A stretch of DNA of 38,555 nt from Clostridia bacterium (GCA_017532045.1 JAFXJW010000055.1:1-38555); one strand, 5' to 3'. Positions 4,332 to 34,435 are shown, numbered from the stretch's first letter. A program made the numbers and translations. Notes: generated by a model not told the origin, from the letters alone.

Positions 4332-6347
4332 ATGCCTACAAAATCGGTCAAAATAACCGAAAAAACCACCTCTCTCCGTGATTCCGCCGGCGACGGGACC
4401 CTGCCCGTATCCGAGGCGAAGACTCTTCGCCCCTATCGCCGCGAGCTGGACGAGTTTTTGTTTCACGAGGGCACGGCTCGCTATGCCTACAGCTATCTGG
4501 GCGCCCACGAGGAAATAGGTGGAGACGGGATTGAGCAAATCGTTTTCCGTGTTTGGGCTCCCCATGCCAAAGCCGTTTCGGTGGTCGGCCTTGCCGACGA
4601 CTGGGATCACGGCATTCCCATGATCCGCGCCACGGCAAACGGCATTTTCATGCTGGTGCTGGAGGGGCATCTCGTCCCCGACGGATCGGTATACAAGTAT
4701 CGCATCACCGCCGCCGACGGACAGGTTTATCTCCATGCCGACCCCTACGGACGAGCCATGGAATGCCCCCCGGGAACGGCCACCCGCTTTTTTCGGGAGA
4801 AGTCCTTCGTCTGGCACGACGGAGGCTGGCTGAAGCAGCGCAAGACCCGCGCCGCCGACGGCCGCAAATACCCCATGAACATTTACGAGGTTCACGCAGG
4901 CTCCTGGAAATACGGGCCTGACGGAAGGCCTCTTTCCTACCGAGAGCTGGCGGACGAGCTGGCCCCCTATATCAAGCAGATGGGATTCACCCACGTGGAG
5001 CTGCTCCCCGTCATGGAGCATCCCTTCGGAGGCTCCTGGGGCTATCAGGTCTGCGGCTACTACGCCCCCACCGCCCGCTACGGCGACCCCGAGGATTTCA
5101 AGGCCTTCGTGGACATCATGCACAACGCGGGCATCGGGGTCATTCTGGACTGGGTTCCCGCCCACTTCCCCAAGGACGCCCACGGTCTGTACCGCTTCGA
5201 CGGACAACCCCTGTACGAATACGAAGACCCCACCAGACAGGAAAACCGCGGCTGGGGCACCTGCTGCTTTGACGTAGGCAAGAATGAGGTTATATCCTTC
5301 CTCCTGTCCAACGCCTACTACTGGGTGGAGGAATTCCACGCCGACGGTCTCCGTGTGGACGCCGTGGCCTCCATGCTCTACCTCAACTACGACAGGCAGG
5401 ACGGAGAATGGCATCCGAACCGATACGGCAGCTATGAAAATCTGGAAGCCGTGGCCTTCTTCCGCCTGCTCAACCGAAGTCTGCGGGAGGATCACCCCGA
5501 CGTCATGACCATCGCCGAGGAATCCACCATGTGGCCTCACATTACGGATTTCACCGAAAACGGGCTGGGATTCACCTACAAGTGGAACATGGGCTGGATG
5601 AACGATACCCTCCGCTACGTAAAGGAGGATCCCATCTTCCGCAAGCACCTCCACGGACACCTCACCCACATCCCCTCCTACGCCTTCATTGAAAAGTACG
5701 TCCTCCCCATCTCCCACGACGAGGTGGTGCATCTCAAAAAATCCTTCCTGGACAAGATGCCCGGGGACTACTGGCAGAAATTCGCAGGAGCGAGAGCCTT
5801 TGCCGCCTGGATGATGACCCACCCCGGCGCCAAGCTCTGGTTCATGGGCTGTGAGATCGGTCAGTTCGCCGAGTGGAGCGAGGAGCGGGAGCTGGATTGG
5901 TACCTTCTGGACTACGAATACCACGCCAAGCTCCAGCACTACTTCGCCGCCCTGAACAACCTCTACCTCACCACCCCTGCCCTGTGGGACGAGTACACCG
6001 ACACCCCCGAAAAGTCCTTTGAGTGGCTGGAATCCCACAACGCCGAGCAGAGCATTATCGCCTACCGCCGTATCTCCCGCGAGGGGCGGGACGTAACAGT
6101 TATCCTCAATTTCACCCCCGTGGCCCACGTGGATCACAACATCAACGTTCCCCTGCCCGGAAGCTATCGGGAGATCTTCAACTCCGACGACCATCGCTTC
6201 GGCGGCAGCGGGGTGCTGAACACCGGCATCATGGAGGCCTTCCCCGTGGAGGGCAACTTCCTCCACCGCGTACGGGTCAACGTTCCCCCCATGGGTGTGA
6301 CGATACTGGAGAGAGTAGACGATAAGAACGAGGGGCTCTGCCCCTGA
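4332..6347 (+). CDS. glgB: 1,4-alpha-glucan branching enzyme
   Basis: GH13 branching-enzyme motifs: GFTHVELLPVMEHP, ILDWVPAHFPKD, GLRVDAVASMLY, IAEESTMWP, LPISHDEVVH. The start is taken downstream of the promoter at 4263-4291. The last five codons and the stop lie in a repeat-module hairpin. Confidence 0.9.
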   Translation: MPTKSVKITEKTTSLRDSAGDGTLPVSEAKTLRPYRRELDEFLFHEGTARYAYSYLGAHEEIGGDGIEQIVFRVWAPHAKAVSVVGLADDWDHGIPMIRATANGIFMLVLEGHLVPDGSVYKYRITAADGQVYLHADPYGRAMECPPGTATRFFREKSFVWHDGGWLKQRKTRAADGRKYPMNIYEVHAGSWKYGPDGRPLSYRELADELAPYIKQMGFTHVELLPVMEHPFGGSWGYQVCGYYAPTARYGDPEDFKAFVDIMHNAGIGVILDWVPAHFPKDAHGLYRFDGQPLYEYEDPTRQENRGWGTCCFDVGKNEVISFLLSNAYYWVEEFHADGLRVDAVASMLYLNYDRQDGEWHPNRYGSYENLEAVAFFRLLNRSLREDHPDVMTIAEESTMWPHITDFTENGLGFTYKWNMGWMNDTLRYVKEDPIFRKHLHGHLTHIPSYAFIEKYVLPISHDEVVHLKKSFLDKMPGDYWQKFAGARAFAAWMMTHPGAKLWFMGCEIGQFAEWSEERELDWYLLDYEYHAKLQHYFAALNNLYLTTPALWDEYTDTPEKSFEWLESHNAEQSIIAYRRISREGRDVTVILNFTPVAHVDHNINVPLPGSYREIFNSDDHRFGGSGVLNTGIMEAFPVEGNFLHRVRVNVPPMGVTILERVDDKNEGLCP

Positions 6348-6445
6348 CCCCCGCTCAAAATCTTCAAAAGCATCCATGAATATTTTGAAGATTCTTGAAA
6401 GGGGTTTGGGGAAAACTTCTTGCAAGAAGTTTTCCCCAAGCGCTC
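6331..6445. repeat. Mosaic hairpin repeat, copy R0 (glgB-glgC spacer)
   Basis: Three hairpins. (1) AGGGGC-TCT-GCCCCT at 6331-6345. (2) An 11-bp stem AATCTTCAAAA (6359-6369) / TTTTGAAGATT (6383-6393). (3) A perfect 30-nt palindrome GGGGAAAACTTCTTGCAAGAAGTTTTCCCC at 6408-6437. The linker ACCCCCGC is shared with other copies. Confidence 0.8.
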
Positions 6446-6503
6446 CCCTAACATCAGTTAAATTTATGCGGTTCTACCGCGATCACAATAAGGAGGCACC
6501 AAT

Positions 6504-7688
6504 ATGATCTTCAGAAAGAAAGAGTGCGTAGCGATGCTTTTGGCCGGTGGCCAGGGCTCCCGTCTGTACGCCCTCACCAAGAAAGTCGCCAAGCCTGCAG
6601 TACGCTTCGGCGGCAAGTACCGCATCATCGACTTCCCGCTGTCCAACTGTGTGAATTCGGGCATTGACACCGTGGGCGTGCTGACCCAGTACCAGCCCTT
6701 GGTGCTGAACGAGTACATCGGCAACGGTCTGCCCTGGGATCTGGATCGCTCCTTCGGCGGCGTGAAGATCCTGCCCCCCTATCAGGGTCAGAAGGGCGGC
6801 GACTGGTACAAGGGTACCGCCAACGCCATCTACCAGAACCTGGCCTTCATCAACCGTTACGACGCCGACTACGTCCTCATTCTGTCGGGCGATCACATCT
6901 ACAAGATGGACTACGACAAGATGCTGGACTTCCACAAGGCCAAGGGCGCTGACTGCACCATCGCCGTCATTGACGTACCTCTGGAGGAGGCCAGCCGCTT
7001 CGGTATCATGAGCACCAATCCCGACGGCTCCATCTACAAGTTCACCGAGAAGCCCAAGAACCCCGACAGCACCAATGCGTCTATGGGTATCTACATATTC
7101 AACCGCAAGAAGCTCTGCGATTACCTCATCGCAGACGAGGCCGATCCCGCCTCCTCCAACGATTTCGGCAAGAACATCATTCCCAACATGCTGGCCGCAG
7201 GGGAGAAGATGTACGCATTCCCCTTCGAGGGCTACTGGAAGGACGTGGGTACCATCTCCTCCCTGTGGGAGGCCAACATGGATCTTCTGGGTGATACGCC
7301 CGTGCTGGATCTGTCTGGCAACGACTGGCGCATCTTCGCCCGTCACTCCGCCTCGGCTCCCCAGTTCGTGGGCGCTCGCGCATCCATCGAGAACTGCTAC
7401 ATCACCGAGGGCTGTGAGATCTACGGCACCGTAAAGAACTCGGTGGTAGGCCCCGGCGTCAAGATCATGGCAGGCGCTCACGTGGAGGACTGCGTCCTCA
7501 TGGGCGACTGCGTCATCGAGACCGGCGCTACCGTTCAGTATGCCATCATTGACTCCGACGTTGTCATCGGAGAAGGCGCAACCGTGGGCGCTCCCCGCGC
7601 TACGGGCGCCGAGATCGCCGTGGTAGGCGAAAATATCACCATCGCAGCAGGCGCCACTATTGAGCCCGGCGCTATGCTGTCTGAATAA
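6504..7688 (+). CDS. glgC: Glucose-1-phosphate adenylyltransferase, catalytic subunit
   Basis: N-terminal [53 protein letters not shown] at 6489-6495. C-terminal left-handed beta-helix repeats. Confidence 0.92.
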
Positions 7689-7702
7689 AGGAGGACTGAC
7701 AC

Positions 7703-8833
7703 ATGACCGCAGCAGGATTGATCTTTGCCAACATTCATGACCAGAGCATCCCCGAGCTGACTCGGGTGCGCTCCATGGCCTCCGTGCCCTTCGGTTGCCG
7801 CTACCGCCTCATTGACTTCACCCTGTCCAACATGGTCAACTCCGGCATCAACCGCATAGGCCTCATCACCCACCACAACTACCAGTCCCTTCTGGACCAC
7901 ATCGGCACGGGTAAGGACTGGGATCTGGCTCGCCGCTCGGGCGGTATCAAGCTCATCCCTCCCTACGTGACCGCCTACGATCAGGGCGTGTCGGGCACGC
8001 CCGCTCACCGTCTGGAGACTCTCTTCGGCGCGCGGAACTTCATCGCCCACTGCAACGAGGACTGCTTCGTCCTGTCGGATTGCGACATCATCTGCAACAT
8101 TGACCTGTCCGAGGTCATTGAGTACCACGCCGCCACGGGCGCGGACATCACCTTCGTGACCAAGCGAGTGGATGCCTCCTCCATGCATCTGGCCGAGCAG
8201 GTCTCCATCATCGCCGCCGACGAAAACGGCGTTGTCACCGACTTCACCTGCACAAGACCCGAGGAGGGCATTGTCAACCTCTACACCAATATCATGATCG
8301 TCAGCCGCGCCTACCTGCTCAACGTGCTGAACAACGCCGCCGCTCACGGTCACCGCTCCCTCTTCACCGACGTGATCGCCCCCTCCCTCGGCAAGGCTAA
8401 CTACCGTGCTTACGAGTACGACGGCTGGTACGCCTACATCGGCTCTCTGGAGGGCTACTTCGCCTCCTCCATGGATATGCTGGCCAAGGAGGCTCGCGAG
8501 GGTCTGTTCGGCATCAAGAACCGCCCCGTCCTCACCAAGGTGCGCAACTCCGCCCCCACCAAGTACAAGGAGGGCGCCGACGTAAAGAACTCCTTCATCG
8601 CCGACGGCTGCGTCATCGAGGGCACCGTGGAGAATTCCATTCTCTTCCGCGGCGTAAAGGTAGGCAAGGGCACCGTAGTCAAGAATTCCATCCTCATGCA
8701 GGATACATACACCGGCTCCGACGTGACCCTGAACTGCGTGATCACCGATAAGGACGTCACCATCCGTGACGGCCGCCACCTGTCGGGTCACGAAACCATG
8801 CCCTTCTTCGTGGGCAAGGGCGTGAGCGTTTGA
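7703..8833 (+). CDS. glgD: Glucose-1-phosphate adenylyltransferase, GlgD subunit
   Basis: Paralog of GlgC immediately downstream. It lacks the GGxGxRL motif (IFANIHDQSIPELTRVRSMASVPFGCRYRLIDFTLSN). AAGGAGG RBS. The glgC-glgD pair is typical of Firmicutes. Confidence 0.88.
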   Translation: MTAAGLIFANIHDQSIPELTRVRSMASVPFGCRYRLIDFTLSNMVNSGINRIGLITHHNYQSLLDHIGTGKDWDLARRSGGIKLIPPYVTAYDQGVSGTPAHRLETLFGARNFIAHCNEDCFVLSDCDIICNIDLSEVIEYHAATGADITFVTKRVDASSMHLAEQVSIIAADENGVVTDFTCTRPEEGIVNLYTNIMIVSRAYLLNVLNNAAAHGHRSLFTDVIAPSLGKANYRAYEYDGWYAYIGSLEGYFASSMDMLAKEAREGLFGIKNRPVLTKVRNSAPTKYKEGADVKNSFIADGCVIEGTVENSILFRGVKVGKGTVVKNSILMQDTYTGSDVTLNCVITDKDVTIRDGRHLSGHETMPFFVGKGVSV

Positions 8834-8839
8834 GAACAC

Positions 8840-8872
8840 GCCATTCCCCGCGCGATTGGCGCGGGGAATGGC
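8840..8872 (+). terminator. GC-rich perfect hairpin after glgD (possible terminator or processing site, no U tract)
   Basis: GCCATTCCCCGCGC (8840-8853), loop GATTG, GCGCGGGGAATGGC (8859-8872). The stem is 14 bp. It is followed by TACATGC, not a T-run. Confidence 0.35.
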
Positions 8873-8918
8873 TACATGCAAAATGCGAAATCGTGTTTTC
8901 ATAGGTTGAAATCATCAT

Positions 8919-9016
8919 CCGTAGGGGAGGGGTTTCCCCTCCCGACACGCGTCCAAAACCTTTGTCATTCAAAGCTTTTTTGCGAATCATCGGGAGGGGA
9001 AACCCCTCCCCTACGG
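8919..9016. repeat. Perfect 27-nt inverted repeat pair, each arm itself a hairpin (GGGGAGGGG type)
   Basis: CCGTAGGGGAGGGGTTTCCCCTCCCGA (8919-8945) and its exact reverse complement TCGGGAGGGGAAACCCCTCCCCTACGG (8990-9016), separated by a 44-nt AT-richer spacer. Confidence 0.85.
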
Positions 9017-9059
9017 AAAAGTAGATTTCTTTTGCAAAAACAAGCAGGGAGATAAAGAA

Positions 9060-9455
9060 ATGAAACGCTTAAAAGGCAAATACGCCGCCATTATCGCCCT
9101 CCTCTTTGGACTTGTCAGCTGGGGGTATCTCATCGTATCTGTAATTGCCGGCAAGGTAACTACCTACGACCCGACGAATCCCTTTTCCACCAATCTCGAG
9201 CACGGTTACTTTATGTACGGCCTCATCATTTCCATCGTGAGTGTGATCCCCTTTGCGGTAGAGGGTGTCTGCTCCATCGTCCGAGCCACCCGAGGGAAGG
9301 ATATATTACTAAATTTCCTTTCGGCTCTGCTCACGCTCGGTCTAATCCCCATGGCCTTGCTGACCCCTACCGTGTGGTTCTGTTATTACAGCGTCGTTTT
9401 CGCGGCGGAAGTGATCTTTTTCATAATCTACTGTAAGAAATATGTCATCTCCTAA
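9060..9455 (+). CDS. Small hypothetical integral membrane protein (131 aa, about 4 TM)
   Basis: ATG preceded by a GGGAGA RBS. Hydrophobic segments include AAIIALLFGLVSWGYLIVSVIAG, YGLIISIVSVIPFAV and LLTLGLIPMALL. Visibly lower GC than the flanking glg genes. No family recognised. Confidence 0.6.
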   Translation: MKRLKGKYAAIIALLFGLVSWGYLIVSVIAGKVTTYDPTNPFSTNLEHGYFMYGLIISIVSVIPFAVEGVCSIVRATRGKDILLNFLSALLTLGLIPMALLTPTVWFCYYSVVFAAEVIFFIIYCKKYVIS

Positions 9456-9458
9456 AAG

Positions 9459-9483
9459 GTGGGGGAGAAGTTCCTCCCCTACA
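9459..9483. repeat. GGGGAG/CTCCCC hairpin related to the 8919-9016 repeat
   Basis: GTGGGGGAG-AAGTTC-CTCCCCTAC immediately after the stop of the 9060-9455 ORF. It shares the CCTCCCCTAC end with the arms at 8919 and 9016. Confidence 0.6.
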
Positions 9484-9579
9484 GCATCCCTCCTTGCATA
9501 GCTTCCCCCGTCTCGTTTTCGTTCATAATTTTGCATTTTGCATTTTCACACCATTTCACAATTTGGAGGACTACATACT

Positions 9580-11046
9580 ATGTCTGAAAAACTTACTCCC
9601 AAGAAGATCCTCTTTGTGGGCGCAGAGGTCATGCCCTTCGCCGCAACGGGCGGCCTGGGCGACGTCATGGGCTCTCTGCCTGCGGCGCTCCGTGCCAAGT
9701 ACGGCGAGGATGCCGACGTCCGTGTGATCTGCCCTCTGTACGACAAGATCCCCCCCGCCACCGTGGCGGCCATGAAAACCGAGGCTGTGTTCAACGTCAA
9801 GCTCGCTTGGCGCAACCAATACTGCGGCATCCGCTCCATTGTGAAGGATGACGTCACCTTCTACTTCGTGGACAACGAGTACTACTTCAAGCGAGGCGCT
9901 CTGTACGGCCACTTCGACGACGGCGAGCGCTACGCCTTCTTCTGCCGCGCCGTGCTGGATATGATGGAGCAGCTGGACTACTTCCCCGACATCCTCCACG
10001 CCAACGACTGGCAATCCGCCCTGTCCGTGGTCTATCTCAAAACGGAATACGGCTGTAGAAGAAGCGAATACGCCGCCATCAAGACGGTGTTTACCATCCA
10101 CAACATTGAGTATCAGGGTCAGTACGACTTCGCCCTGCTTCAGGACGTATTCGACATCCGCCCCGAGTTCTACACCCTCATGGCCTACGACGGATGCATC
10201 AATCTGGCCAAGGCTGCCGTGGAGTGCGCCGATCGAGTCACCACCGTGTCTCCCACCTACGCCCAGGAGATCATGACCCCCACCTACTCCCACCGCCTGC
10301 ACTTCATTCTGGCCCGTTACAGCCGCAAGGTCAGCGGTATTCTCAACGGCATTGATCAGGTCTACTACAACCCCGCCGCCGACTCCGAGATCCCCTACTG
10401 CTTCTCCGCCGAGGACGTATCGGGCAAGGCTCAGGACAAGCTGGCCTTCCAGAGAGAGTACGATCTGCCCGAGGACGCCGACGCCCCCATGATGGCGGTC
10501 ATTTCCCGCCTTGCCTCCCACAAGGGCGTGGACATCATTGCGGGTATGCTCCGTCACGTGCTGGAGACCCACCCCAAGGCGCAGTTCGTGGTGCTGGGCA
10601 CGGGAGAAGCTCAGTTTGAAAGCTACTTCCGTCAGCTGGAGCAGGACTTCCCCCGAAGAGTTCGCGCCTTCATCACCTACAACCGCGCCCTCTCCAAGAA
10701 GATCTACGCCGCCGCCGATATTTTCCTCATGCCCTCCAGGTCCGAGCCCTGCGGTCTGTCTCAAATGATCGCTTGTCGCTACGGCACCATCCCCGTGGTT
10801 CGTGAGACCGGCGGTCTGTACGACTCCATCAAGCCCTACTTCGAGGACGAGAACGGCCCTCACGGCAATGGCTTCACCTTTGCCAACTACGAGGCCTCCG
10901 AGCTGGAGGAGAGAGTCTGCGCCGCCCTCGCTCTCTACGAGCATGAGCCCGAGAAGTTCGCCGCCCTCCGCTACCGTGCCCTCACCTCCGACTTTTCTTG
11001 GGATGCCTCCGCCGAGAAGTACATGGAGATGTATCAGAATATGTGA
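9580..11046 (+). CDS. glgA: Glycogen synthase (ADP-glucose type)
   Basis: KILFVGAEVMPFAATGGLGDVMGSLP (KxGGL motif) and a GT5 C-terminal domain. The ATG at 9580 has a GGAGG RBS at 9565-9569. The ORF-track start at 9538 has none. Confidence 0.92.
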   Translation: MSEKLTPKKILFVGAEVMPFAATGGLGDVMGSLPAALRAKYGEDADVRVICPLYDKIPPATVAAMKTEAVFNVKLAWRNQYCGIRSIVKDDVTFYFVDNEYYFKRGALYGHFDDGERYAFFCRAVLDMMEQLDYFPDILHANDWQSALSVVYLKTEYGCRRSEYAAIKTVFTIHNIEYQGQYDFALLQDVFDIRPEFYTLMAYDGCINLAKAAVECADRVTTVSPTYAQEIMTPTYSHRLHFILARYSRKVSGILNGIDQVYYNPAADSEIPYCFSAEDVSGKAQDKLAFQREYDLPEDADAPMMAVISRLASHKGVDIIAGMLRHVLETHPKAQFVVLGTGEAQFESYFRQLEQDFPRRVRAFITYNRALSKKIYAAADIFLMPSRSEPCGLSQMIACRYGTIPVVRETGGLYDSIKPYFEDENGPHGNGFTFANYEASELEERVCAALALYEHEPEKFAALRYRALTSDFSWDASAEKYMEMYQNM

Positions 11047-11072
11047 GGAGCGGGAGAGCGAGTCTCCGACGG

Positions 11073-11124
11073 CTTAAGAGCCCTTTTGAAAAAGGGTTCT
11101 TAAGAATCTCCTAAAACTTTCAAA
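11073..11124. repeat. Partial mosaic hairpin repeat, copy R1
   Basis: CTTAAGAGCCCTTTT-GA-AAAAGGGTTCTTAAG (11073-11104), then AATCTCCTAAAACTTTCAAAAAG. This aligns with 19674-19725 of copy R4. Confidence 0.7.
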
Positions 11125-11161
11125 AAGAAAACCTACCGACGAAAATCGGTAGGTTTTTTTG
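11125..11161. terminator. Bidirectional rho-independent terminator between convergent glgA and the GH13 gene
   Basis: AACCTACCGA (11130-11139) / TCGGTAGGTT (11146-11155), flanked by an A-run and a T7 run. Confidence 0.85.
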
Positions 11162-11174
11162 TATTAAATAATGA

Positions 11175-13145: not shown

Positions 13146-13177
13146 GGTTCCCTGCTCCTTTCGGATTAGAATAGTGA

Positions 13178-13389
13178 ATGCAGGGGCTTCACCCCTGCAC
13201 CCCACCTAAACCCTTTTTGCAAAACCTCCTCGCTTTGCTCGGGGCAAATTCGTCTGCGACGAAGTTTGCGAGGGTTTAGGAATCCCAAAAACCTTTAAAC
13301 AACAATGCTTTAAAAGGTTTTGGGGGTCAAGGCCCTTTTCTCAAAAGGGCTTTGCGGGGAGTGGGGCAGAGCCCCACAAACCCCAATTT
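13178..13389. repeat. Mosaic hairpin repeat, copy R2 (module order A-B(core)-C-D-E-terminal motif)
   Basis: Module A: GCAGGGGCTTCACCCCTGC at 13180-13198. Module B: arms CTAAACCCT (13206-13214) / AGGGTTTAG (13271-13279) around the 55-nt core. Module C: CCCAAAAACCTTTAAA...TTTAAAAGGTTTTGGGGG at 13284-13326. Module D: GCCCTTTTCTCAAAAGGGC at 13332-13350. Module E: GTGGGGCAGAGCCCCAC at 13361-13377. Terminal motif: AAACCCCAATTT at 13378-13389. Confidence 0.9.
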
Positions 13390-13400
13390 ATTTCCCCCAC

Positions 13401-13429
13401 ATTATATCATAAAACCCATGTTCTGTCAA
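13401..13429 (-). promoter_or_regulatory. Consensus SigA promoter upstream of repeat R2 and the GH13 gene
   Basis: Minus strand reads TTGACA (13429-13424), exactly 17 nt, TATAAT (13406-13401). The predicted TSS near 13394 places all of R2 in a leader of about 250 nt. Confidence 0.6.
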
Positions 13430-15934: not shown

Positions 15935-16023
15935 ATCGGTTATCACTTTCTTAGATTGGTTTCGATGGATATACATATTATTTGTTGGCAGGAGAAATTT
16001 TATGTGTAATGGGGGAGCATGTC

Positions 16024-16229
16024 GCAGGGGTTTCACCCCTGCACCCCACCTAAACCCTTTTTGAAAAAAGGGTTTAGGAATCCCAAAAACGTTTAACAAA
16101 TATATTTTTTAAAGGTTTTTGAGATTCCAAAGAACTTCGCAAACTTTGCCGCAGGCAAATTTGCCCCGAGCGAAGCGAGGAGGTTTGCCAAAAAGTTCTT
16201 TGGTGGGGGTGTGAGGGCAAAGCCCCCAC
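16024..16229. repeat. Mosaic hairpin repeat, copy R3 (A - empty B - C - filled B with inverted core - E)
   Basis: Module A: GCAGGGGTTTCACCCCTGC at 16024-16042. Empty B: perfect palindrome TAAACCCTTTTTGAAAAAAGGGTTTA at 16051-16076. Module C hairpin: 16082-16122. Filled B: arms CCAAAGAACT (16127-16136) / AGTTCTTTGG (16194-16203) around the core at 16137-16190. Module E: GTGAGGGCAAAGCCCCCAC at 16211-16229. Confidence 0.9.
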
Positions 16230-16230
16230 T

Positions 16231-16239
16231 ATTATAGCA
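16231..16239 (-). promoter_or_regulatory. Candidate extended -10 promoter (TGCTATAAT) that would drive glgP through repeat R3
   Basis: Minus strand reads GGTGCTATAATAG. The TATAAT at 16236-16231 overlaps the stop codon of the upstream ABC ATPase gene. The -35 is poor (CCGGAC). Confidence 0.35.
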
Positions 16240-19097: not shown

Positions 19098-19634
19098 ATG
19101 TTCATTTACTCCTTCAAAGCCAGCAGCATCAAGTTTTTTGGGATCCTTTGCGTTGCCTTAGCGGCGCTCATTGCCCTCATTGCCTTTGTGCCCGCTTATG
19201 CGGGCGAGCAGAATACGGGCGGCGGGAACAGCGGTGGGGTAGCAGTGGATGCCCCCGAGGCAGAATCCGGCGTGACGGTATCGGTGCGCTACGACAAGGT
19301 CACGACCGCCGACGATGCGGCGGGCTTCCTCTCCCAGTTCGGCTGGGTGGTGGATGCCGGATCGGTGGAGACCAAGGAGGTCACCATTCCCGCCCAGTTC
19401 GACAAGGTGTTCGCCGGCTACAACGAGATGCAGAAGTCTCAGGGACTGGATCTGTCCAAATACAAGAAAAAGGGCGTCACCCGCTACACCTTCACCGTCA
19501 CCAACTACAAGGGGTATGAGGGAGCCGTGTACGCCAACGTGCTGACCTACCGCGGCCGTGTCATCGGCGGGGACATCTGCTCGGCAGACGTGAGCGGCTT
19601 CATCCACGGGTTTGAAAAGCCTGCGGGGGAATGA
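19098..19634 (+). CDS. Hypothetical membrane-anchored protein, DUF4830-like
   Basis: ATG with a GGAGG RBS (19086-19090), an N-terminal TM anchor FFGILCVALAALIALIAFV, and a C-terminal domain (FLSQFGWVVD ... YNEMQKSQGLDLSKYKKKGVTRYTF ... GGDICSADVSGFIHGF) that resembles DUF4830 by recall. An alternative TTG start at 19011 also has an AAGGAG RBS. Confidence 0.55.
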   Translation: MFIYSFKASSIKFFGILCVALAALIALIAFVPAYAGEQNTGGGNSGGVAVDAPEAESGVTVSVRYDKVTTADDAAGFLSQFGWVVDAGSVETKEVTIPAQFDKVFAGYNEMQKSQGLDLSKYKKKGVTRYTFTVTNYKGYEGAVYANVLTYRGRVIGGDICSADVSGFIHGFEKPAGE

Positions 19635-19877
19635 AATTGGGGTTTGTGGGGGCTCTGCCCCCACCCCCCGCAAGGCCCTTTTGAAAAAAGTTCTTTGGAA
19701 TCTCCCAAAACTTTTGAAAACCATTGTAAAACAAGAATGTTTTAAAGGTTCTTGGGATTCTTAAACCCTCGCAAACTTTGCCGTAGGCGAATTTGCCCCG
19801 AGCAAAGCGAGGAGGTCTTGCAAGAAGGGTTTAAGTGGGGTGCAGGGGTGAAACCCCTGCCCGACAAACCCAAATTT
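19634..19877. repeat. Mosaic hairpin repeat, copy R4: full-length element with terminal inverted repeats (order E-C-B(core)-A, inverted relative to R2)
   Basis: Terminal inverted repeats: AAATTGGGGTTTGT (19634-19647) and ACAAACCCAAATTT (19864-19877). Module E: GTGGGGGCTCTGCCCCCAC at 19646-19664. Module B: arms CTTAAACCCT (19760-19769) / AGGGTTTAAG (19826-19835) around the core. Module A: GCAGGGGTGAAACCCCTGC at 19842-19860. Confidence 0.9.
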
Positions 19878-19907
19878 GAAACGATTATTCAGGATTGGAG
19901 AAAGAAA

Positions 19908-23473: not shown

Positions 23474-23546
23474 GAAAAGATTTTGGAGATTCCAAAGAAC
23501 CTTTTGAAAAAGGTTCTTTGGTGGGTGCAGGGCAACGCCCTGCATC
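23474..23546. repeat. Mosaic hairpin repeat, copy R5 (short; empty B hairpin plus A/E-type hairpin) in the metY-metA intercistronic spacer
   Basis: Perfect 30-nt palindrome CCAAAGAACCTTTTGAAAAAGGTTCTTTGG (23492-23521), then TGCAGGGC-AAC-GCCCTGCA (23526-23544). Same arms as the filled hairpin at 16127-16203. Confidence 0.85.
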
Positions 23547-23553
23547 GTCCCAA

Positions 23554-24862: not shown

Positions 24863-25186
24863 TTCAAATTTGGGTTTATCGAGGAAGTCTCCCTGTACCC
24901 CGTTCCCCCAAGATGAAGGACGAAGCCCTTCATTAAGAGAAGTGGCCGGGGGTATTGGGGGCGGCCGTGAGCGCCCCAATGCGCGGCGGAAGCCGCAAGA
25001 AGGTTTTCGATAAACTTCCTTTTGTGGAAAAGAAAATTCCAGTTTTGACTCGTAAAGTTTCTTGCACCTGCCGGTGCGCGTCAGGGTGCTCAAGGCCGCC
25101 CCCGACACCCCAGGCCTCCTACTTTTTCTTTGCAGGGGCTTCGCCCCTGCACCCTGTTACAGAGGAAACCCAACTCCTCGATAAAC
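24863..25186. repeat. Variant mosaic hairpin repeat, copy R6 (about 320 bp)
   Basis: Terminal-motif copy TTCAAATTTGGGTTTAT at 24863-24879. Hairpins: ATGAAGG/CCTTCAT at 24913-24933; ATTGGGGGCG/CGCCCCAAT at 24954-24980; GCGGC-GGAA-GCCGC at 24983-24996; module A GCAGGGGCTTCGCCCCTGC at 25132-25150. The motif TCGATAAAC or its complement occurs at 24874-24882, 25007-25015 and 25178-25186. Confidence 0.75.
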
Positions 25187-25192
25187 TGCAAT

Positions 25193-26647
25193 TTACTCAC
25201 TCCAGCCCGTCAGGTTATCGCACTGATAGAACACCCGATCCCCCACGGTGGTGACGCCCTCGGCGGTGAGGGTGGCCAGGGAGAGGCAACCCGAGAAGCA
25301 AGAACTAGGGAGAGTGGTGACGTTTTTCGAAAGGGAAACGGTAGTGAGGGAAAGACAGCCCATGAAGGCCTGTATGCCCAGCACCGTCAGCCCTGCGCCG
25401 CTTCTGAAGGTCTGCATACGAATGCAGCCATGGAAGGCGTCATCCCCAATGGACACCACGCTATCGGGGAGGGTCATGGCCGTCAGCCGCTCACAGCCGT
25501 AGAAGGCGCGCCGACCGATGGTGGTCACACCCTGAGGGATGTGGATCTCTCGGATGGAGGAACACTCAAAGAATGCGTTGGCGGGAATGGCGGAACAGCC
25601 CTTGGAGAGCGTCACGGTGATGAGAGAGGCAGGGATATAGCCCGCCGTGAAGGTGTAGTGAGCCGCACCGAAGAGGTAGCCCAGATAGGCCGTTGCCTCG
25701 GCGGGATGCAGGGCATCCCCCTTCTCAATAGCCGCCTTTTGCTCCTCGGTAATCGGATGATCGTAGGTACAGCCTCCCACGAAGGGAATGGTGAGACTCT
25801 CCAGTCTGCCACAGCCCTCCAGCATACCCTCGCCCATGTATGCGACGGTGCTCGGGAGGGTCATATTCAAGAGGCGAATACAACTCGAAAAGGCGTGCTC
25901 GCCCAGAGTGGTCAGGGCGGTATCGGCGGTAGTGATATAGGCAAGGCCCTCACAGCCGTAAAAAGCGAAATCGCCGATCTCAACCGTCGTATCGGGCAGG
26001 GAGACGACCTCCAGTCCACGGCAGGCATAGAAGGCGTAATCGGGGATAACCGTCCCCTTGGTCAGAACGAGGGTGGAGAGGCTAACGGGCACGTAGCCGC
26101 CGCCCGCCTCGTGAGTGGTAGCGCCAAAGAGAGCGCCAAAGTAGGGTGCGCCCTCACAGGTGTAGACGGGGGTTTTCAGGGAGGTAAGATTCTTGCACCC
26201 CTCAAAGGCGGACTTGCCAACCGAGGTAACGGTATCGGGAACAGACACGGCCTTGAGGCCCGTCATGCCCTTAAAGGCGGAGTCGGCAATAGCGGTAACA
26301 GGCTTCCCCTCGATGGTATCGGGAATGACGAGAACAGACTCGCCTCCCTTGTAACCCAAAACGGTCACGCCATTCTCGTTATTCTCATAAGCGAAGTCGG
26401 GAGTACGGGCAGGCGCAGACGAAGCAAAGAGGGCCTCCAGCCGCTCGGCATAGTCGGAGACGTCCGTAAGCACACGGTCATCGGTCAGATCGGGGACGGT
26501 AACGGGAGGAAGGGTCACGACCTCCCCATCGGGAGACGTATCTCCGCCGTCGGAGTCGATCGAGCAGGCGACCATAGTCAGAAGCAGGGACACCGCCGTC
26601 AGAGCAGCCAGCATGCGGCCAAGGGTTGCGGACAAATATGTTTTCAT
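25193..26647 (-). CDS. Leucine-rich-repeat (BspA-like) surface lipoprotein
   Basis: Signal peptide with lipobox (LLLTMVAC). The body has many roughly 23-aa repeats of the form I-P-x-x-V-T-x-I-G-x-x-A-F-x-x-C-x-x-L. Confidence 0.8.
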   Translation of the reverse strand: MKTYLSATLGRMLAALTAVSLLLTMVACSIDSDGGDTSPDGEVVTLPPVTVPDLTDDRVLTDVSDYAERLEALFASSAPARTPDFAYENNENGVTVLGYKGGESVLVIPDTIEGKPVTAIADSAFKGMTGLKAVSVPDTVTSVGKSAFEGCKNLTSLKTPVYTCEGAPYFGALFGATTHEAGGGYVPVSLSTLVLTKGTVIPDYAFYACRGLEVVSLPDTTVEIGDFAFYGCEGLAYITTADTALTTLGEHAFSSCIRLLNMTLPSTVAYMGEGMLEGCGRLESLTIPFVGGCTYDHPITEEQKAAIEKGDALHPAEATAYLGYLFGAAHYTFTAGYIPASLITVTLSKGCSAIPANAFFECSSIREIHIPQGVTTIGRRAFYGCERLTAMTLPDSVVSIGDDAFHGCIRMQTFRSGAGLTVLGIQAFMGCLSLTTVSLSKNVTTLPSSCFSGCLSLATLTAEGVTTVGDRVFYQCDNLTGWSE

Positions 26648-26710
26648 GATATTTCCTTTTCACGAAGTGTTTCAAAAGCGAAGGCTTCCCACATAGGTAT
26701 ACCTTTTTAT

Positions 26711-26739
26711 AGTATAACACAAAAGAAGCTGAAATGCAA
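26711..26739 (-). promoter_or_regulatory. SigA promoter of the LRR lipoprotein gene
   Basis: Minus strand reads TTGCAT (26739-26734), 17 nt, TGtTATACT (-10 hexamer at 26716-26711). Confidence 0.55.
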
Positions 26740-26761
26740 GAGTATTTCAGCATTTTCACGC

Positions 26762-26793
26762 AAAAAACAGGCCGCACCGAGGTGCGGCCTGTT
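26762..26793 (-). terminator. Strong rho-independent terminator about 215 nt downstream of rny
   Basis: 13-bp stem AACAGGCCGCACC (26766-26778) / GGTGCGGCCTGTT (26781-26793). On the minus strand it is followed by T6 (complement of A6 at 26762-26767). Confidence 0.85.
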
Positions 26794-27007
26794 CGGGTTC
26801 GCTTTATACCAAACCGCGTTTGGGGTACCCTCGTGGGTACTACCTTGGCGGCGATCATGGACATTGGGGTTGTATGTTCAATTGTATCACAAACCGCATT
26901 TGGCTGTGCGGACAACAGCACCCGTATCTGTAATTTGATAAAGCTCGTCCCAATGGGGACAAATTCATGGGGAACGGGGTAGAATTGCGGAGCTACTCTC
27001 GCAGGTA
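26794..27007 (-). other. Structured, non-coding, transcribed region between the rny stop and its terminator (long 3' UTR or independent small RNA)
   Basis: No plausible ORF. There are several local hairpins (GTCCC-CATT-GGGAC, GTACCC-TCGT-GGGTAC) and two related palindromes: CCAAACCGCGTTTGG at 26809-26823 and ACAAACCGCATTTGG at 26889-26903. Confidence 0.4.
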
Positions 27008-28558: not shown

Positions 28559-28595
28559 GTTTATACACCTCCTTTTCTCAAAAATAAAATCAAAG

Positions 28596-28624
28596 CCTCG
28601 CCTGCACCGTAGGAACAGGCGAGG
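28596..28624 (-). promoter_or_regulatory. 5'-proximal stem-loop in the rny leader, followed by a U-rich tract
   Basis: CCTCGCCTG (28596-28604) / CAGGCGAGG (28616-28624). On the mRNA the 9-bp hairpin starts 2-4 nt after the predicted TSS and is followed by GCTTTGATTTTATTTTTGAG before the RBS. Confidence 0.55.
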
Positions 28625-28633
28625 TCATGTTAT

Positions 28634-28662
28634 ATTATACACAAAATTTGGCGAATTGTCAA
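28634..28662 (-). promoter_or_regulatory. Consensus SigA promoter of rny
   Basis: Minus strand reads TTGACA (28662-28657), exactly 17 nt, TATAAT (28639-28634). Confidence 0.65.
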
Positions 28663-28738
28663 GTGATTTTATGCCTTTAACGAACTAAAATCATTCCTTT
28701 TTTGAAATTTTCCGCAAATTCCCCAGCAGGAGTCCGTC

Positions 28739-30259: not shown

Positions 30260-30347
30260 AGAAAAGCTCCTTTATGCTGATGATTGGAATGGAAAGAGGA
30301 AAGAAACCCGAAAAAGCTCCTTTCCTCTCCTGTATTTGACTGTTCGT

Positions 30348-31385
30348 TTAGGATTTCACTCTGGAAGGCAGGGTAACCACGCCCTCGGGCATGCCGCTCA
30401 GGTAAGGAAGGAGGCTTCCTGCACCCAAAACGGTGCTGCTGATGGGCTTCTTGGCCACGTAGGCGGGAATGCCCGTGACCCGCTCAATGAGGCGATCCAG
30501 TCCTCGGAGCAGACTTCCGCCGCCCGTAAGGACCATGCCCTTTTGCAGAATATCTCCCACCAGCTCGGGAGGCGTTCGCTCCACCACCGAGCAGATGGAA
30601 TCCAGAATGGCGGTAATGGGCTCGTAGAGGGCCTCGATCATCTCACGGGAGCTGATGAGGACTTCCTTTTGGTAGCCCTCGGAGAGAGAGCGACCCGTGA
30701 CCTTCATGTAAGTGGTCTTTTTCTGCTCGTAGACGTCACCGATGTTGATCTTGATGTCCTCGGCGGTGCGCTCACCGATGAGGATATTGTAGCGGCGACG
30801 GAGGTAGCTCTGAATGGCCTCGTCGAACTTATCTCCTCCCACGGGAATGGAGTCGGATACCACCAGGCCGCCCATGGACAGCACCGCAATATCACTGACA
30901 CCGCCACCAATATTGACGACCATGCTTCCCACAGGGGACTTGATGTCAAGACCTGCGCCGATGGCGGCGGCCTTGGGCTCTTCGATGAGGTAGGTTCGTC
31001 TGGCACCCGCCTCACGGGAGGCCTCCATCACGGCCCGCATCTCCACCTCGGAGATGCCCGTAGGCACCGTGATCAGCACACGGGGCGGGATCCACACCTT
31101 GCCGCAAGCGCGGCGGATGAAGTAGCGGAGCATCTGGAGAGTGACCTCGTACTGGCTGATGGTGCCGTTCTTCATGGGGCGCAGAGCGTCAATGTGGTCG
31201 GGGGTACGGCCCAGCATCTCCATGGCGTCCTGACCCACCTTGACCACACGGTCGGTGGAGACGTCGATGGCCACCACAGAGGGCTCCTTGAGGACGATGC
31301 CCTGATCCTGCACGTAGACGAGGACGGAGGCCGTACCGAAATCAATGGCGATATCCCGCGTAAACTTCTCCAGCACCGTACTCAC
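30348..31385 (-). CDS. mreB: Rod-shape-determining actin homolog MreB/Mbl
   Basis: IAIDFGTASVLVY, VVNIGGGVSDIAVLSMGG, GGGSLLRGLD. 345 aa. AGGTGA RBS. Confidence 0.92.
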   Translation of the reverse strand: MSTVLEKFTRDIAIDFGTASVLVYVQDQGIVLKEPSVVAIDVSTDRVVKVGQDAMEMLGRTPDHIDALRPMKNGTISQYEVTLQMLRYFIRRACGKVWIPPRVLITVPTGISEVEMRAVMEASREAGARRTYLIEEPKAAAIGAGLDIKSPVGSMVVNIGGGVSDIAVLSMGGLVVSDSIPVGGDKFDEAIQSYLRRRYNILIGERTAEDIKINIGDVYEQKKTTYMKVTGRSLSEGYQKEVLISSREMIEALYEPITAILDSICSVVERTPPELVGDILQKGMVLTGGGSLLRGLDRLIERVTGIPAYVAKKPISSTVLGAGSLLPYLSGMPEGVVTLPSRVKS

Positions 31386-31448
31386 CTCGCTTTCCTGTGT
31401 GTGGTTTTGGGACGCGGAAACAGTATCCCAACATATATCTTTTTATAA

Positions 31449-31477
31449 GTATAACACAATACCACCCTCTGTGTCAA
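31449..31477 (-). promoter_or_regulatory. SigA promoter of mreB
   Basis: Minus strand reads TTGACA (31477-31472), 17 nt, TGtTATACT (-10 hexamer TTATAC at 31454-31449). Confidence 0.55.
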
Positions 31478-31522
31478 GGGGGTTTTGGATATTTCAAGGC
31501 GGCTTCCCCTCGGCGGCGGGAT

Positions 31523-33799
31523 TTATCGGCCTCGCCTCAGGCGAAGGGACAGTCCCGTATAGCGCAGGGTCTGACGGTTGTTGTCCACCATGGTGCGGAT
31601 CACGTCCTCCCTGCCCACCAGGATCACCATGCGCTGGGCACGGGTAACGGCGGTGTAGAGCAGGTTGCGGACAAGGAGAAGGGGCGGAGCATTGTACACG
31701 GGGATGATGACGAAGGGATACTCCGAGCCCTGACTCTTGTGGACGGTCACCGCCCACGCATGCTCCAGCTCGTCCAGCATATCCCCCGTGTAGGTAGCCT
31801 CCTTATCGTCGAAGGAAACCACCATTTCCCCCTCGGCAGGGTCAACAAAGATCACCGTACCGATGTCACCGTTGAACACGCCGCTTCCCTCGGTTCGATC
31901 CACACTGCTACCGCTCTCCCACGTAATATCATAGTTGTTCTTGGTCTGCATGACCCGATCTCCCACACGGAAGACCGTATCCCGGAAGGTAAGCTCTCGC
32001 TTTCCCTTGGCGGGGGGATTCAACTCCTTTTGCAAGCGGCGATTGAGGTTTTCCGTGCCAGCCTCTCCCTTACGGGAGGGAGTGATGATCTGGATGCCGC
32101 CCTCGGTCGCCTTCCCGTAGGCACGGGGCAGGCGGGTGGCGCAAAGCTCCACCACGGTATCTGCGATCTCACGGTCATGGCGGCGAGGGAGGAAGAAGAA
32201 ATCGTTATTCTTCACCGTCAGGTCGGGGTAGACGCCCTCGTTGATGGCGTGGGCGTTGGTAATGATGAGAGACTCCCCTGCCTGGCGGAAGATCTCGGTG
32301 AGGCGCACCGTGGAAAAGCGGCCGCTGTCGATGAGGTCGTTCAGTACCCGTCCCGCTCCCACCGAGGGAAGCTGGTCGGCGTCTCCAATAAGAATGAGCC
32401 GCGCGCCGGGCTTGATCGCCTTGCAAAGAGAGCACATGAGGGCATTGTCCACCATGGAGGCCTCGTCCACGATGATCACGGACTCCTCCAGAAGATCCTG
32501 CTCGTTACGGCGGAATCGCCCGTGTCCGCTTCCCTCCTCAAATTCCATCTCCAAAAGGCGATGGATGGTCTTAGCCTCGGTGGAGGTGGATTCCGACAGC
32601 CGCTTGGCCGCCCGTCCCGTGGGGGCGCACAGGGCCACCGTCATATCCATGGAGCGGAAAATGTGTAAAAGGGCGTGAACCACGGTGGTCTTACCCGTAC
32701 CCGGGCCGCCCGTCAAGAGCATCACGCCGCCCGACAGAGCGGCCACGATGGCCTGCTTTTGACCTTTGGCATAGGACACCCCCTGCTCCCGCTCCTCACG
32801 GGCAATGAAGGCGTTTACGTCCCCTGCGTCCACGGCGGGGCAAAGTCTGTCCAGAAGGAGGAGCTTGTCCGCAATATATTTTTCCTGCCGATCCGAGCTT
32901 TTGTCATAGATGAGATCCTGTCCCTCGAAGCGGTGGGACACCAGCGCCCCCATGTCCAGCAGGGTCGCCACGGCGTCCTCCACCTGTTTCCTTTCGGCCT
33001 GCAAAAGGCTCGTGGCGGCCTCGATCAGCTTCTCTCGGGGAAGGCAGACGTGACCGTTGCGGGCGGCGTTGGAGGTGAGGATATAGCGGACGCCGCTCAT
33101 GGCTCGCTCCTCGCTGTGAGGGTCCAGTCCCAGAGACATAGCCATCTGGTCGGCTCGCTCAAAGCCGATTCCCTCCACCTCGTCGCAGAGGCGGTAGGGG
33201 TTTTTCTTGGCCAGATCCACAGCCCCCGCACCGAGCTGCTTGTAGATCTTGACGGTCATAGCGGCGCCAAAGTAGTCACGGAAGAAAAGCATAGCCGAGC
33301 GGATCCCCGCCTTGGCCTTAAAATCCGCCGAGATCTCGGCGGCCTTTCTGCGGGAAATACCCGGCACGTCGGCCAGCCATTCGGGATGGTTCTCCATCAC
33401 GTCCAGCGTCTCGTCTCCGAAATGGGACACGATGCGCTCGGCCAGTCTGGGGCCTATGCCCTTGATGGTGCGGGAGGCCAGATACCGCAGAATGGCGGCG
33501 GAATCGGCGGGCATGTTCCGCTCGTACTGCTCCACCTTGAACTGGCGACCGTACTTGGGGTTATGCACCCAGTTTCCCCATAGGATCAGGCTATCCCCGT
33601 CGGTCACGTAGGGCAGGATCCCGCAGGCGGTGATGACGTCATCCTCCAGCCCGAAATCCATGACGGTGTACCCGTTGTCCTCGTTGGCGTATATGATATG
33701 CTCCACCGTACCCTTCAGCTGGGTGAGGGATTCCTTGGAAAAATCCTCGCCCCCCGTCATGGAGGCGTCAAGGGGCGGCAGGGGGGGATGATCGTACAT
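31523..33799 (-). CDS. recD2: SF1B ATP-dependent RecD-like DNA helicase
   Basis: Walker A LTGGPGTGKTT, Walker B IIVDEASMVD, C-terminal AVTVHKSQGSEY, and an N-terminal HhH-containing region. 758 aa. AAGGAGG RBS. Confidence 0.88.
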   Translation of the reverse strand: MYDHPPLPPLDASMTGGEDFSKESLTQLKGTVEHIIYANEDNGYTVMDFGLEDDVITACGILPYVTDGDSLILWGNWVHNPKYGRQFKVEQYERNMPADSAAILRYLASRTIKGIGPRLAERIVSHFGDETLDVMENHPEWLADVPGISRRKAAEISADFKAKAGIRSAMLFFRDYFGAAMTVKIYKQLGAGAVDLAKKNPYRLCDEVEGIGFERADQMAMSLGLDPHSEERAMSGVRYILTSNAARNGHVCLPREKLIEAATSLLQAERKQVEDAVATLLDMGALVSHRFEGQDLIYDKSSDRQEKYIADKLLLLDRLCPAVDAGDVNAFIAREEREQGVSYAKGQKQAIVAALSGGVMLLTGGPGTGKTTVVHALLHIFRSMDMTVALCAPTGRAAKRLSESTSTEAKTIHRLLEMEFEEGSGHGRFRRNEQDLLEESVIIVDEASMVDNALMCSLCKAIKPGARLILIGDADQLPSVGAGRVLNDLIDSGRFSTVRLTEIFRQAGESLIITNAHAINEGVYPDLTVKNNDFFFLPRRHDREIADTVVELCATRLPRAYGKATEGGIQIITPSRKGEAGTENLNRRLQKELNPPAKGKRELTFRDTVFRVGDRVMQTKNNYDITWESGSSVDRTEGSGVFNGDIGTVIFVDPAEGEMVVSFDDKEATYTGDMLDELEHAWAVTVHKSQGSEYPFVIIPVYNAPPLLLVRNLLYTAVTRAQRMVILVGREDVIRTMVDNNRQTLRYTGLSLRLRRGR

Positions 33800-33832
33800 G
33801 GGAAGCCTCCTTTCCGAAAAATGGTGTAGCGG

Positions 33833-34156
33833 TTATGGGGTGTCCTCCATAAAACAGAGGGTCGCGCCGTACCGCTCCAAGACCTCGGCGTAACCCTCGG
33901 TCTCCTTCATGCCCTCCTCCCACAGACTGCGGGGAAGAACCAGAACCACCCGTTTTCCCCGACCGCAGGAGGTGCGGCGAGCCTCGCAGAGCAGGATGTC
34001 CAGCTCCTCGGGAGGCAGGGAGCGGGTAACGACCACGGCCGTAGCCAGCTCACGGGGAGTGAGAAAAACCGCAAACAGGCCATGAAGAACACCGTAAAAG
34101 CCTATGACTGCCAAAGCAGCAATCGTGATCTGAAATAACGTCTCCCGAACATCCAT
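33833..34156 (-). CDS. Hypothetical small membrane-anchored protein (107 aa)
   Basis: ATG 34154-34156 with a GGGAGG RBS and one N-terminal TM helix (ITIAALAVIGFYGVLHGLFAVFL). Lies 33 nt upstream of recD2. No family recognised. Confidence 0.5.
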   Translation of the reverse strand: MDVRETLFQITIAALAVIGFYGVLHGLFAVFLTPRELATAVVVTRSLPPEELDILLCEARRTSCGRGKRVVLVLPRSLWEEGMKETEGYAEVLERYGATLCFMEDTP

Positions 34157-34220
34157 ATACCGACCTCCCAAAATGGTTTCGATAATCAGTATATGAAAGG
34201 GCGCAGGGAGGAGTGAGGGG

Positions 34221-34435
34221 TTCAAATTGGGGTTTATAGGGCCGAAGGCCCTCTCGCCCCCACTTAAACCCTTCTTGCAAGACCTCCTCGCTTTGCTCGG
34301 GGCAAATTCGCCTACGGCAAAGTTTGCGAGGGTTTAAGAATCCCAAGACCCTTCAAAAAACATTGATGAGCCAATAACAATTTGTTAAAGGTTTTTGGGG
34401 AGTCCAGAGGGGCTTTTTGCAAAAAGCCCCTTTGG
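34221..34435. repeat. Mosaic hairpin repeat, copy R7 (terminal motif - E - B(core) - C - D)
   Basis: Terminal motif: TTCAAATTGGGGTTTAT at 34221-34237. Module E: AGGGCC-GA-AGGCCCT at 34238-34252. Module B: arms CTTAAACCCT (34263-34272) / AGGGTTTAAG (34329-34338). Module D: AGGGGCTTTTTGCAAAAAGCCCCT at 34408-34431. The segment 34258-34347 is the exact reverse complement of 19751-19840. Confidence 0.9.

Follow-up and report, generated by a model that had tools for sequence, protein, structure and literature searches.

A palindromic, mosaic and apparently undescribed repeat superfamily in the intergenic spacers of an uncultured gut Clostridia species

Results

We analyzed a 38,555-nt stretch of DNA from Clostridia bacterium (GCA_017532045.1, JAFXJW010000055.1:1-38555), referred to here as the window, in which hairpin-rich repeats lie between the genes. 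The window is chromosomal DNA of 57% G+C and, on the basis of third-codon-position G+C (GC3) and Pfam, encodes glgB, glgC, glgD and glgA, followed by an alpha-amylase and glgP. It also encodes an ABC transporter for amino acids, a DUF4830 gene, cdd and a phosphorylase of pyrimidine nucleosides. Further genes are metA, an O-acetylhomoserine sulfhydrylase gene (named metY here), a gene for a BspA-type leucine-rich repeat (LRR) protein, RNase Y, an M20 peptidase, MreB, RecD2, metK behind an S-adenosylmethionine (SAM) riboswitch, and the 3' part of tuf. No tRNA or tmRNA genes were found in the window. Close protein relatives carry only the name 'Clostridia bacterium'. Across 13.6 kb, the window matches a contig from a human-gut metagenome (L285) at 99.6% identity, and the identity of the window to ENA ERZ28653805 scaffold_8951 is given as 99.6%. 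Contigs of the same or sister species were reached via DUF4830 and RNase Y homologues. The host of the repeats is an uncultured gut Clostridia species.

The full element, as seen in copies from related genomes, has the order T-A-B-C-B'-A'-T and forms a quasi-palindrome of ~180-300 bp with local hairpins. A terminal motif T is followed by hairpin A, which is GC-rich and has a tail of the ACCCCAC type (in some species, GCCTCCGGCGGC instead), by a hairpin B with a TTTTGAAAA centre and by a long AT-rich hairpin C, after which come a second B-type hairpin (B'), A' and T'. The A hairpins, GCAGGGG-N5-CCCCTGC and variants thereof, start ~20 nt from each tip and are found as inverted pairs at element flanks or singly behind stop codons. 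A core insert of 46 nt may be present in either of the B hairpins. The ends are conserved but systematically different, namely TTCAAATTTGGGTTTATCGG ('End-G') and AAATTGCWGTTTAWCGG ('End-C'), and make up imperfect terminal inverted repeats (TIRs) of ~17-20 nt. The small stem-loop vocabulary, A to E, that had been proposed in a reading of the sequence alone (the sequence-only reading) is present as described, with D corresponding to a coreless B-type hairpin and E (GTGGGGC-AGA-GCCCCAC) to an A-type hairpin. The repeats of the window and their cores are as follows (strand is given for the cores).

6324-6445: R0, truncated, with an A hairpin (6331-6345) and its tail, GACCCCCGC, an AT-rich hairpin resembling C, and a coreless B-type hairpin (6408-6437)
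11047-11127: R1, with a left-end module (degenerate GCCTCCGGCGGC), a coreless B hairpin (11073-11104) and half a C hairpin
13179-13401: R2, in the order A, B (with core), C, B', A', then a single T end (13372-13393)
13225-13271, + strand: core of R2, 46/47 nt, inside the B hairpin, its inner hairpin having the compensated GTC/GAC variant
16010-16232: R3, in the order A, B (coreless), C, B' (with core), A', without T ends
16137-16183, - strand: core of R3
19634-19880: R4, a complete element, T-A-B'-C-B(with core)-A'-T
19769-19815, - strand: core of R4
23474-23546: R5, a fragment with one half of a C hairpin, a B hairpin lacking the core, and an A hairpin
24863-25194: type II element, with End-G at 24863, End-C at 25179-25194, a different internal palindrome and one A hairpin (25131-25149)
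34221-34458: R8, in the order T (End-G), A, B (with core), C, B', then a non-T end
34283-34329, + strand: core of R8

R4 is thus whole, R2 and R8 have one T end each, and R0, R1 and R5 are fragments. A repeat search of the window aligned 13180-13299 with 19741-19860 (inverted, 92% over 120 nt), 19740-19840 with 34258-34358 (inverted, 98% over 101 nt), 13200-13307 with 34258-34365 (direct, 88%) and 16106-16208 with 13200-13302 (inverted, 76%). BLAST depth, computed against the window together with related loci, singles out seven regions (6324-6358 with 6398-6437, 11052-11131, 13179-13379, 16024-16227, 19634-19881, 23475-23543 and 34219-34444), all of which have alignable modules in common. The limits of some copies proved wider than first listed (R8 as 34221-34458, R3 as 16010-16232, and R2 extending to 13401).

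The sequence-only reading had counted nine or more occupied spacers. Eight loci hold, seven because they are alignable and the eighth, the type II element, by its termini. The latter had been listed as a family member at 24863-25186, and it does share the terminal motifs and one A hairpin, but the A/B/C body is absent and it represents a second cargo type. A GGGGAGG-type set (8918-9017 and 9459-9483) that had been counted as related shows no significant similarity to the family and was dropped. Together, the eight loci sum to 1,554 nt, or 4.0% of the 38.5-kb window, and occupy ~8 of the ~17 spacers of at least 100 nt in the window gene map, such that the earlier description of almost every spacer longer than 100 bp as being occupied was overstated. 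The orientations that had been given are correct, the core being on the + strand in R2 and on the - strand in R3 and R4, with R4 as a whole being the inverse of R2. Module order across copies likewise supports mosaic assembly, in which modules vary in number, order and orientation; chimeric B hairpins exist (e.g., 19672-19698), and arms are swapped at orthologous hairpins.

One should consider whether such loci are a family at all, or rather generic GC-rich, terminator-like hairpins that are alike by chance, especially as the solo A hairpins that come straight after stop codons do resemble terminator stems. The copies are, however, 88-98% identical over 100-120 nt, and a covariance model finds, next to the eight window loci, 81 core-bearing copies in related loci with E-values of 6e-16 to 7e-37. 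Moreover, the A, B and C hairpins lack T-tracts and were not called intrinsic terminators in a promoter and terminator scan, save for two weak stems of three GC pairs (6331-6345 and 13316-13334), while the same scan calls separate terminators, such as that at 11128-11157. The similarity that had been reported thus survives alignment statistics, by which chance resemblance is excluded.

The repeats have a narrow taxonomic range. An exact-pattern scan for the core in 185,579 species genomes returned 67 loci, of which 65 lie in about nine uncultured gut Clostridia metagenome-assembled genomes (MAGs) from human gut, goat colon and water-deer rectum, a concentration that again speaks against chance, while the other two look like chance matches. 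The covariance model found no core in 0.97 Mb from relatives with a GlgP at most 79% identical. Among the core matches L003-L067, ~16 of the 35 that could be assessed lie no more than 250 nt from a contig end (by our reading of the match table), as is expected of a dispersed repeat, and the repeats probably account for some of the fragmentation seen in metagenome assemblies of this clade.

Comparison of the whole window with Rfam at the gathering threshold gave only the SAM riboswitch upstream of metK (35794-35882, - strand; RF00162, 70 bits). The metA-metY pair has no riboswitch match in this whole-window comparison, the spacer upstream of metY being filled by the type II repeat instead. When R2 and the type II element were compared with Rfam at E-values up to 10, only noise was obtained, and identity with a known RNA, be it a ribozyme or a riboswitch, was rejected since no Rfam covariance model matched. 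A phage or plasmid origin was also rejected, as the core is absent from viral contigs and R4 has no match in plasmids or phages. The 16-nt terminal motif gave 114 viral matches, all single, which by rough estimate is about the number expected by chance and is thus uninformative. Searchable literature on the sequences, and on miniature transposable elements with inverted repeats (MITEs) or repetitive extragenic palindromic (REP) sequences in these taxa, yielded primer coincidences only. The repeat superfamily is thus apparently undescribed, in agreement with the sequence-only reading, which had not recognized it as a known family.

The core, YCTCCTCGC-N3-5-GCT-CGGGGCAAATTYGCCTNCGGCRAAGTTTGC-R, is in every case located within a B hairpin, between its TTTTGAAAA centre and its 3' arm. 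It was never found in tandem among the copies examined, although in L017 it is present in both B hairpins, in mirror orientation. In the model-based alignment, 97.3% of cells are standard pairs, as compared to 27-58% when the partners are slid, and 11 of the 22 pairs are changed on both sides. Doubly changed cells number 198, against 63.6 +/- 12.3 in shuffles, with none of the 500 shuffles reaching as high. Within the inner hairpin, one T.G pair is conserved, and two variants, C-G to T-A and GCC/GGC to GTC/GAC, are compensated. The arms are far more variable, with 33 distinct pairs in 56 copies, yet remain complementary, with 577 Watson-Crick pairs against ~8 mismatches; so, too, does the hairpin orthologous to R5 in relatives, which has other arms. 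A coding reading of the core was rejected, as it has no start codon and as its substitutions are non-synonymous, yet preserve base pairs.

One should also weigh the possibility that the repeats are host-selected, cis-acting RNA elements in 5' and 3' untranslated regions, serving as mRNA stabilizers, processing sites or translation modulators, and spread mainly by recombination. Several features point in this direction: The stems covary while junction sequences are conserved, the conserved T.G pair renders the inner hairpin strand-specific, and one strand of the core presents CCUCCU, the opposite strand AGGAGG. The positions of the copies also fit such a role. All window loci are intergenic, or overlap just the end of a gene at its stop, and six of the eight copies lie within ~8 nt of the stop codon of the upstream gene. 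R1 begins 1 nt past the glgA stop and precedes the intrinsic terminator of that gene at 11128-11157. R2 fills the leader between the start of the amylase gene and a sigma-70-type promoter on the - strand (13401-13429; TTGACA, 17 nt, TGnTATAAT, 12/12 consensus), which lies directly upstream of R2 and is context rather than part of the repeat; if this promoter is used, the whole of R2 (220 nt) is the 5' leader of the alpha-amylase gene. Finally, both spacers that flank glgP carry elements in the window, as well as in the 83%-identical relative L068.

On the other hand, the core shows no preferred orientation with respect to the neighbouring genes (16 sense and 14 antisense, by a crude gene call; three antisense and one sense in the window), and G.T pairs in the arms are not more common than other mismatches (~14 G.U against ~15 'other', with the innermost pair set aside). 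These two results argue against a strand-specific RNA function and favour arm pairing that is maintained at the DNA level. In addition, no Rfam family matched, and the elements of the window are missing at the same genes from strains that are 89-93% identical to it, which makes the elements dispensable. Selection for an RNA function is thus, in our view, an unlikely explanation of the repeats, although individual copies may have a role at the RNA level.

In loci that bear the family, the terminal motif was counted 54 times in 417 kb, as compared to seven weak matches in 967 kb from more distant relatives. End-G and End-C, with the pair that bounds an element written as TTCAAATTTGGGTTTATCGG and CCGWTAAACWGCAATTT, are found inverted in 27 distinct complete elements of 35-431 bp, and are not found in R0, R1, R3 or R5. 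Between these same ends lie no fewer than four or five kinds of interior, all rich in hairpins and unrelated to one another; that of the type II element (24863-25194) is one of them and shares sequence with L021. The elements are small and carry no open reading frame (ORF), and their many copies are dispersed. Folded as DNA, R4 reaches -59 kcal/mol, as compared to -35 +/- 3.5 kcal/mol for shuffled sequences (z = -6.9).

Comparison of closely related contigs reveals whole elements to be either present or absent. L285 carries the elements that are missing from contigs 89-93% identical to the window. L290 (93% identical) has no element in 14.4 kb, corresponding to a load of 0%, and lacks the type II element (328-nt gap) and R8 (237-nt gap) cleanly. 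L287 (89% identical) is also without R8, and L262 (90% identical) is without the whole R3 block (214-nt gap). In more distant relatives, the load is 0-0.2%, and outside the clade the corresponding spacers of relatives are short and ordinary.

The occupants of a spacer are exchanged as well. Between the LRR gene and metY, the type II element is found in the window and L285, a complete type I element without a core in L287 and L289, and a mini-element of 73 nt in L270, while L290, L266 and L271 are empty. In L287, the spacer between the DUF4830 gene and cdd contains type II, where the window has type I, such that comparison of L287 (13314-13495 and 18494-18714) with the window (24863-25194 and 19634-19880) reveals the two types to have been exchanged between the same two spacers. 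Across related species, the DUF4830-cdd spacer is found with four cargo types, and in the closest relatives it contains only a solo A hairpin. As whole elements come and go and occupants are swapped between near-identical strains, the elements are, or recently were, mobile. The adjacent BspA-type LRR gene itself varies in repeat number within the coding region, with the 75 nt at 25698-25772 of the window being only 18 nt in L287, L288 and L289.

Elements of 35-431 bp that have imperfect TIRs (~17-20 nt) and no ORF, are present in many copies and are polymorphic in their insertion bring to mind classical MITEs, namely internally deleted derivatives of DDE insertion sequences (IS) that move via their TIRs and generate target-site duplications. 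No such duplication was found. None of the 27 complete elements is flanked by direct repeats (0/27), and comparison of filled with empty junctions (R8, the type II element, the type I element of L287, and R3) likewise reveals none. A duplication of AAATT, beside the GGG-type end, was plausible at first and was then ruled out by near-isogenic junctions, as the inserted block at R8 begins TTCAAATT so that AAATT belongs to the element itself. In the LRR-metY spacer, the 'AAAT' of End-C coincides with the host TAA-AT. Flanks beside either end are variable, with no conserved 4-5-nt target having been seen next to the left end. Furthermore, a search for the end pair in ~2 Mb turned up no IS with these ends, and copies that lack the ends altogether can also be clean indels, as is R3. 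We thus consider a classical MITE origin to be doubtful.

Some other loci with hairpins are of a different nature. The gap between glgD and glgA is 768 nt long in the window (8834-9600), as compared to 0-80 nt in many relatives, and contains a 131-aa predicted membrane ORF (9060-9455) with no Pfam match. Upstream lies a perfect 28-nt inverted repeat (8918-8945/8990-9017) of GGGGAGGGG hairpins, with a like hairpin downstream (9459-9483), and a stretch of the ORF is 69% identical to a sequence elsewhere in MAG JAZOOM (L020). This insert looks like a small inserted gene cassette. In L065 (~830-1950), comparison with L029 reveals a 1.1-kb gene inserted between two conserved genes that encodes a Cys-rich, nuclease-like product and is not bounded by repeat termini. 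Unrelated palindromic or tandem-hairpin elements, with GAATTCGGAATTC-type, CATATCGAG-type and AATGATGT-type repeats of sister species serving as examples, are found in the same spacers in L271 (~620-830), L270 (9700-9935) and L278 (~340-500). The clade seems to be generally prone to colonization of its spacers by hairpin repeats.

Discussion

Taken together, we consider it probable (roughly 0.6) that the repeats constitute a lineage-specific superfamily of non-autonomous, non-coding, mobile mosaic elements that are moved in trans in uncultured gut Clostridia. Beyond what had been noted from the sequence alone, the analysis revealed the palindromic architecture and terminal motifs, a core with covarying arms, the narrow range, and both presence/absence and occupant swapping between strains.

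In such a scenario, an enzyme encoded elsewhere in the genome would recognize either the ends or the hairpins just inside them. The absence of duplicated flanks, together with the asymmetry of the ends and the position of the hairpins, speaks for a single-strand HUH/Y1 enzyme, whether like a REP-associated tyrosine transposase (RAYT) or like those of IS200/IS605, or else for a site-specific recombinase, rather than for a classical DDE transposase. Truncated and rearranged mosaics would arise later, by deletion and by recombination between hairpin modules that belong to separate copies. At the DNA level, the hypervariable arms may be kept almost perfectly complementary by selection for fold-back competence or by repair between the arms of an extruded hairpin.

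This reading of the repeats as elements mobilized in trans has some drawbacks that need to be considered. Proteins of the window contain no Pfam domain of a transposase or recombinase, as the sequence-only reading had stated for transposases, and there is no transposase or recombinase in ~150 kb of annotated neighbouring genes. A tblastn search with an approximate IS200 TnpA query found nothing in 538 kb, which is a weak negative, and no autonomous copy, in the form of an inverted end pair more than 431 bp apart, was found in ~2 Mb, of which ~0.7 Mb is from family-bearing genomes. Some of the 'empty' sites in relatives still hold a solo A hairpin, and the polymorphism could thus be partly due to deletion or decay. 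The presence of elements in both glgP spacers of the window and of L068 could reflect retention by selection. Finally, R3, R5, R0 and R1 have no terminal motifs, yet R3 is a clean indel, such that the ends are not obviously required. A RAYT (Y1 HUH) gene was found neither in the window nor in annotated neighbour contigs, and the ORFs at 9060-9455 and 33833-34225, which were considered as hidden Y1 transposases, were rejected as being predicted membrane proteins with no Pfam match.

The core allows for a further variant, in which non-DDE mobilization, by a single-strand HUH/RAYT-like enzyme or by another enzyme not yet tied to such repeats in Clostridia, is combined with a core that is a separately selected or separately mobile structured module. 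The fixed site of the core 3' of TTTTGAAAA, its presence or absence in orthologous hairpins and the conservation of its sequence while the arms change are the basis for this view. An orthologous indel of the core is seen 3' of glgA, where the hairpin of the window (R1) reads CTTAAGAGCCCTTTTGAAAA directly followed by AGGGTTCTTAAG, while the same hairpin in JAZOOM (L052), whose glgA is 84.6% identical to that of the window, carries the 46-nt core between the two. Nonetheless, core variants mostly follow arm subfamilies within a genome, so that hairpin and core usually amplify together. Transposition of the core alone into arbitrary hairpins is weakened by this tendency, with the one orthologous indel (R1 versus L052) remaining. 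We regard this combined variant as unlikely; if true, the core could be the recognition site of the enzyme, or among the smallest mobile modules known.

Whatever the enzyme, the repeats reshape the 3' ends of genes, as the stops of glgB and of the DUF4830 gene sit inside repeats. The glgB ORF (4212-6347) has its final eight codons and its stop within hairpin A of R0 (6324-6347), and the TGA stop of the DUF4830 gene (in the 19631-19636 region) overlaps the first bases of R4, while empty alleles end in TAA. The elements put strong hairpins, strings resembling Shine-Dalgarno or anti-Shine-Dalgarno sequences, and new stop codons at gene ends and leaders, and are thus a plausible source of regulatory variation between strains. 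If the repeats are indeed mobilized as proposed, this would be an apparently undescribed mosaic repeat superfamily in a Clostridia lineage, whose strong strain turnover, with the load passing from 4% to 0% at 93% identity, could serve as a strain marker for an uncultured gut organism. Asymmetric ends, the lack of duplication, exchangeable cargo and a core with hypervariable paired arms would, in addition, provide a defined substrate for finding the mobilizing enzyme.

When the repeats are placed among known systems, each comparison is partial. MITEs, such as Correia/NEMIS of Neisseria and bcr1 of Bacillus cereus, are similarly small, without ORFs, bounded by TIRs, dispersed in intergenic regions and polymorphic between strains. 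Here, however, there is no target-site duplication, the two ends are systematically different, the cargo under the same ends is interchangeable, and no parent IS was found. The local load of 4.0% is above the highest genome fraction, 1.23%, reported in a census of prokaryotic MITEs (PMC11602168), where the density reached at most 123 per Mb, although a 38-kb window cannot be extrapolated to a genome. The palindrome-associated transposable elements (PATEs) of the IS200/IS605 group resemble our repeats in having subterminal GC-rich hairpins ~20 nt from the tips, no target duplication and asymmetric ends, and single-strand transposition is compatible with what we observed. Unlike the case with PATEs, no conserved 4-5-nt target lies next to one end, the ends are inverted repeats, and the search of 538 kb with an approximate query gave no Y1 transposase.

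BOX elements of Streptococcus pneumoniae are also modular and intergenic, with a variable central module of ~45 nt and strong predicted structure. The order of BOX is linear, boxA-(boxB)n-boxC, whereas that of the present elements is symmetric (T-A-B-C-B'-A'-T), with the 46-nt core being found once or never per B hairpin, and there is no sequence similarity between the two. Similar in kind are BIME, REP and REPIN sequences of enterobacteria and pseudomonads (BIME standing for bacterial interspersed mosaic element), which are extragenic, of high copy number, and composed of short, GC-rich, imperfect palindromes in alternating orientation that build mosaics, mostly in 3' untranslated or intercistronic regions, with no target duplication and with variation between strains. 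BIME and REP sequences differ in that they have no sequence similarity to our repeats, which possess extra terminal motifs, long AT-centred hairpins and a 46-nt core, belong to a Clostridia lineage, and have no identified counterpart of the RAYT-type conserved 5' tetranucleotide. To our knowledge, few REP-, BIME- or MITE-like families are known from Clostridia. The likeness to BIME and BOX mosaics that had been suggested from the sequence alone thus holds at the level of kind and not of sequence, and, by analogy, we would class the repeats as another bacterial interspersed mosaic, or palindromic, element.

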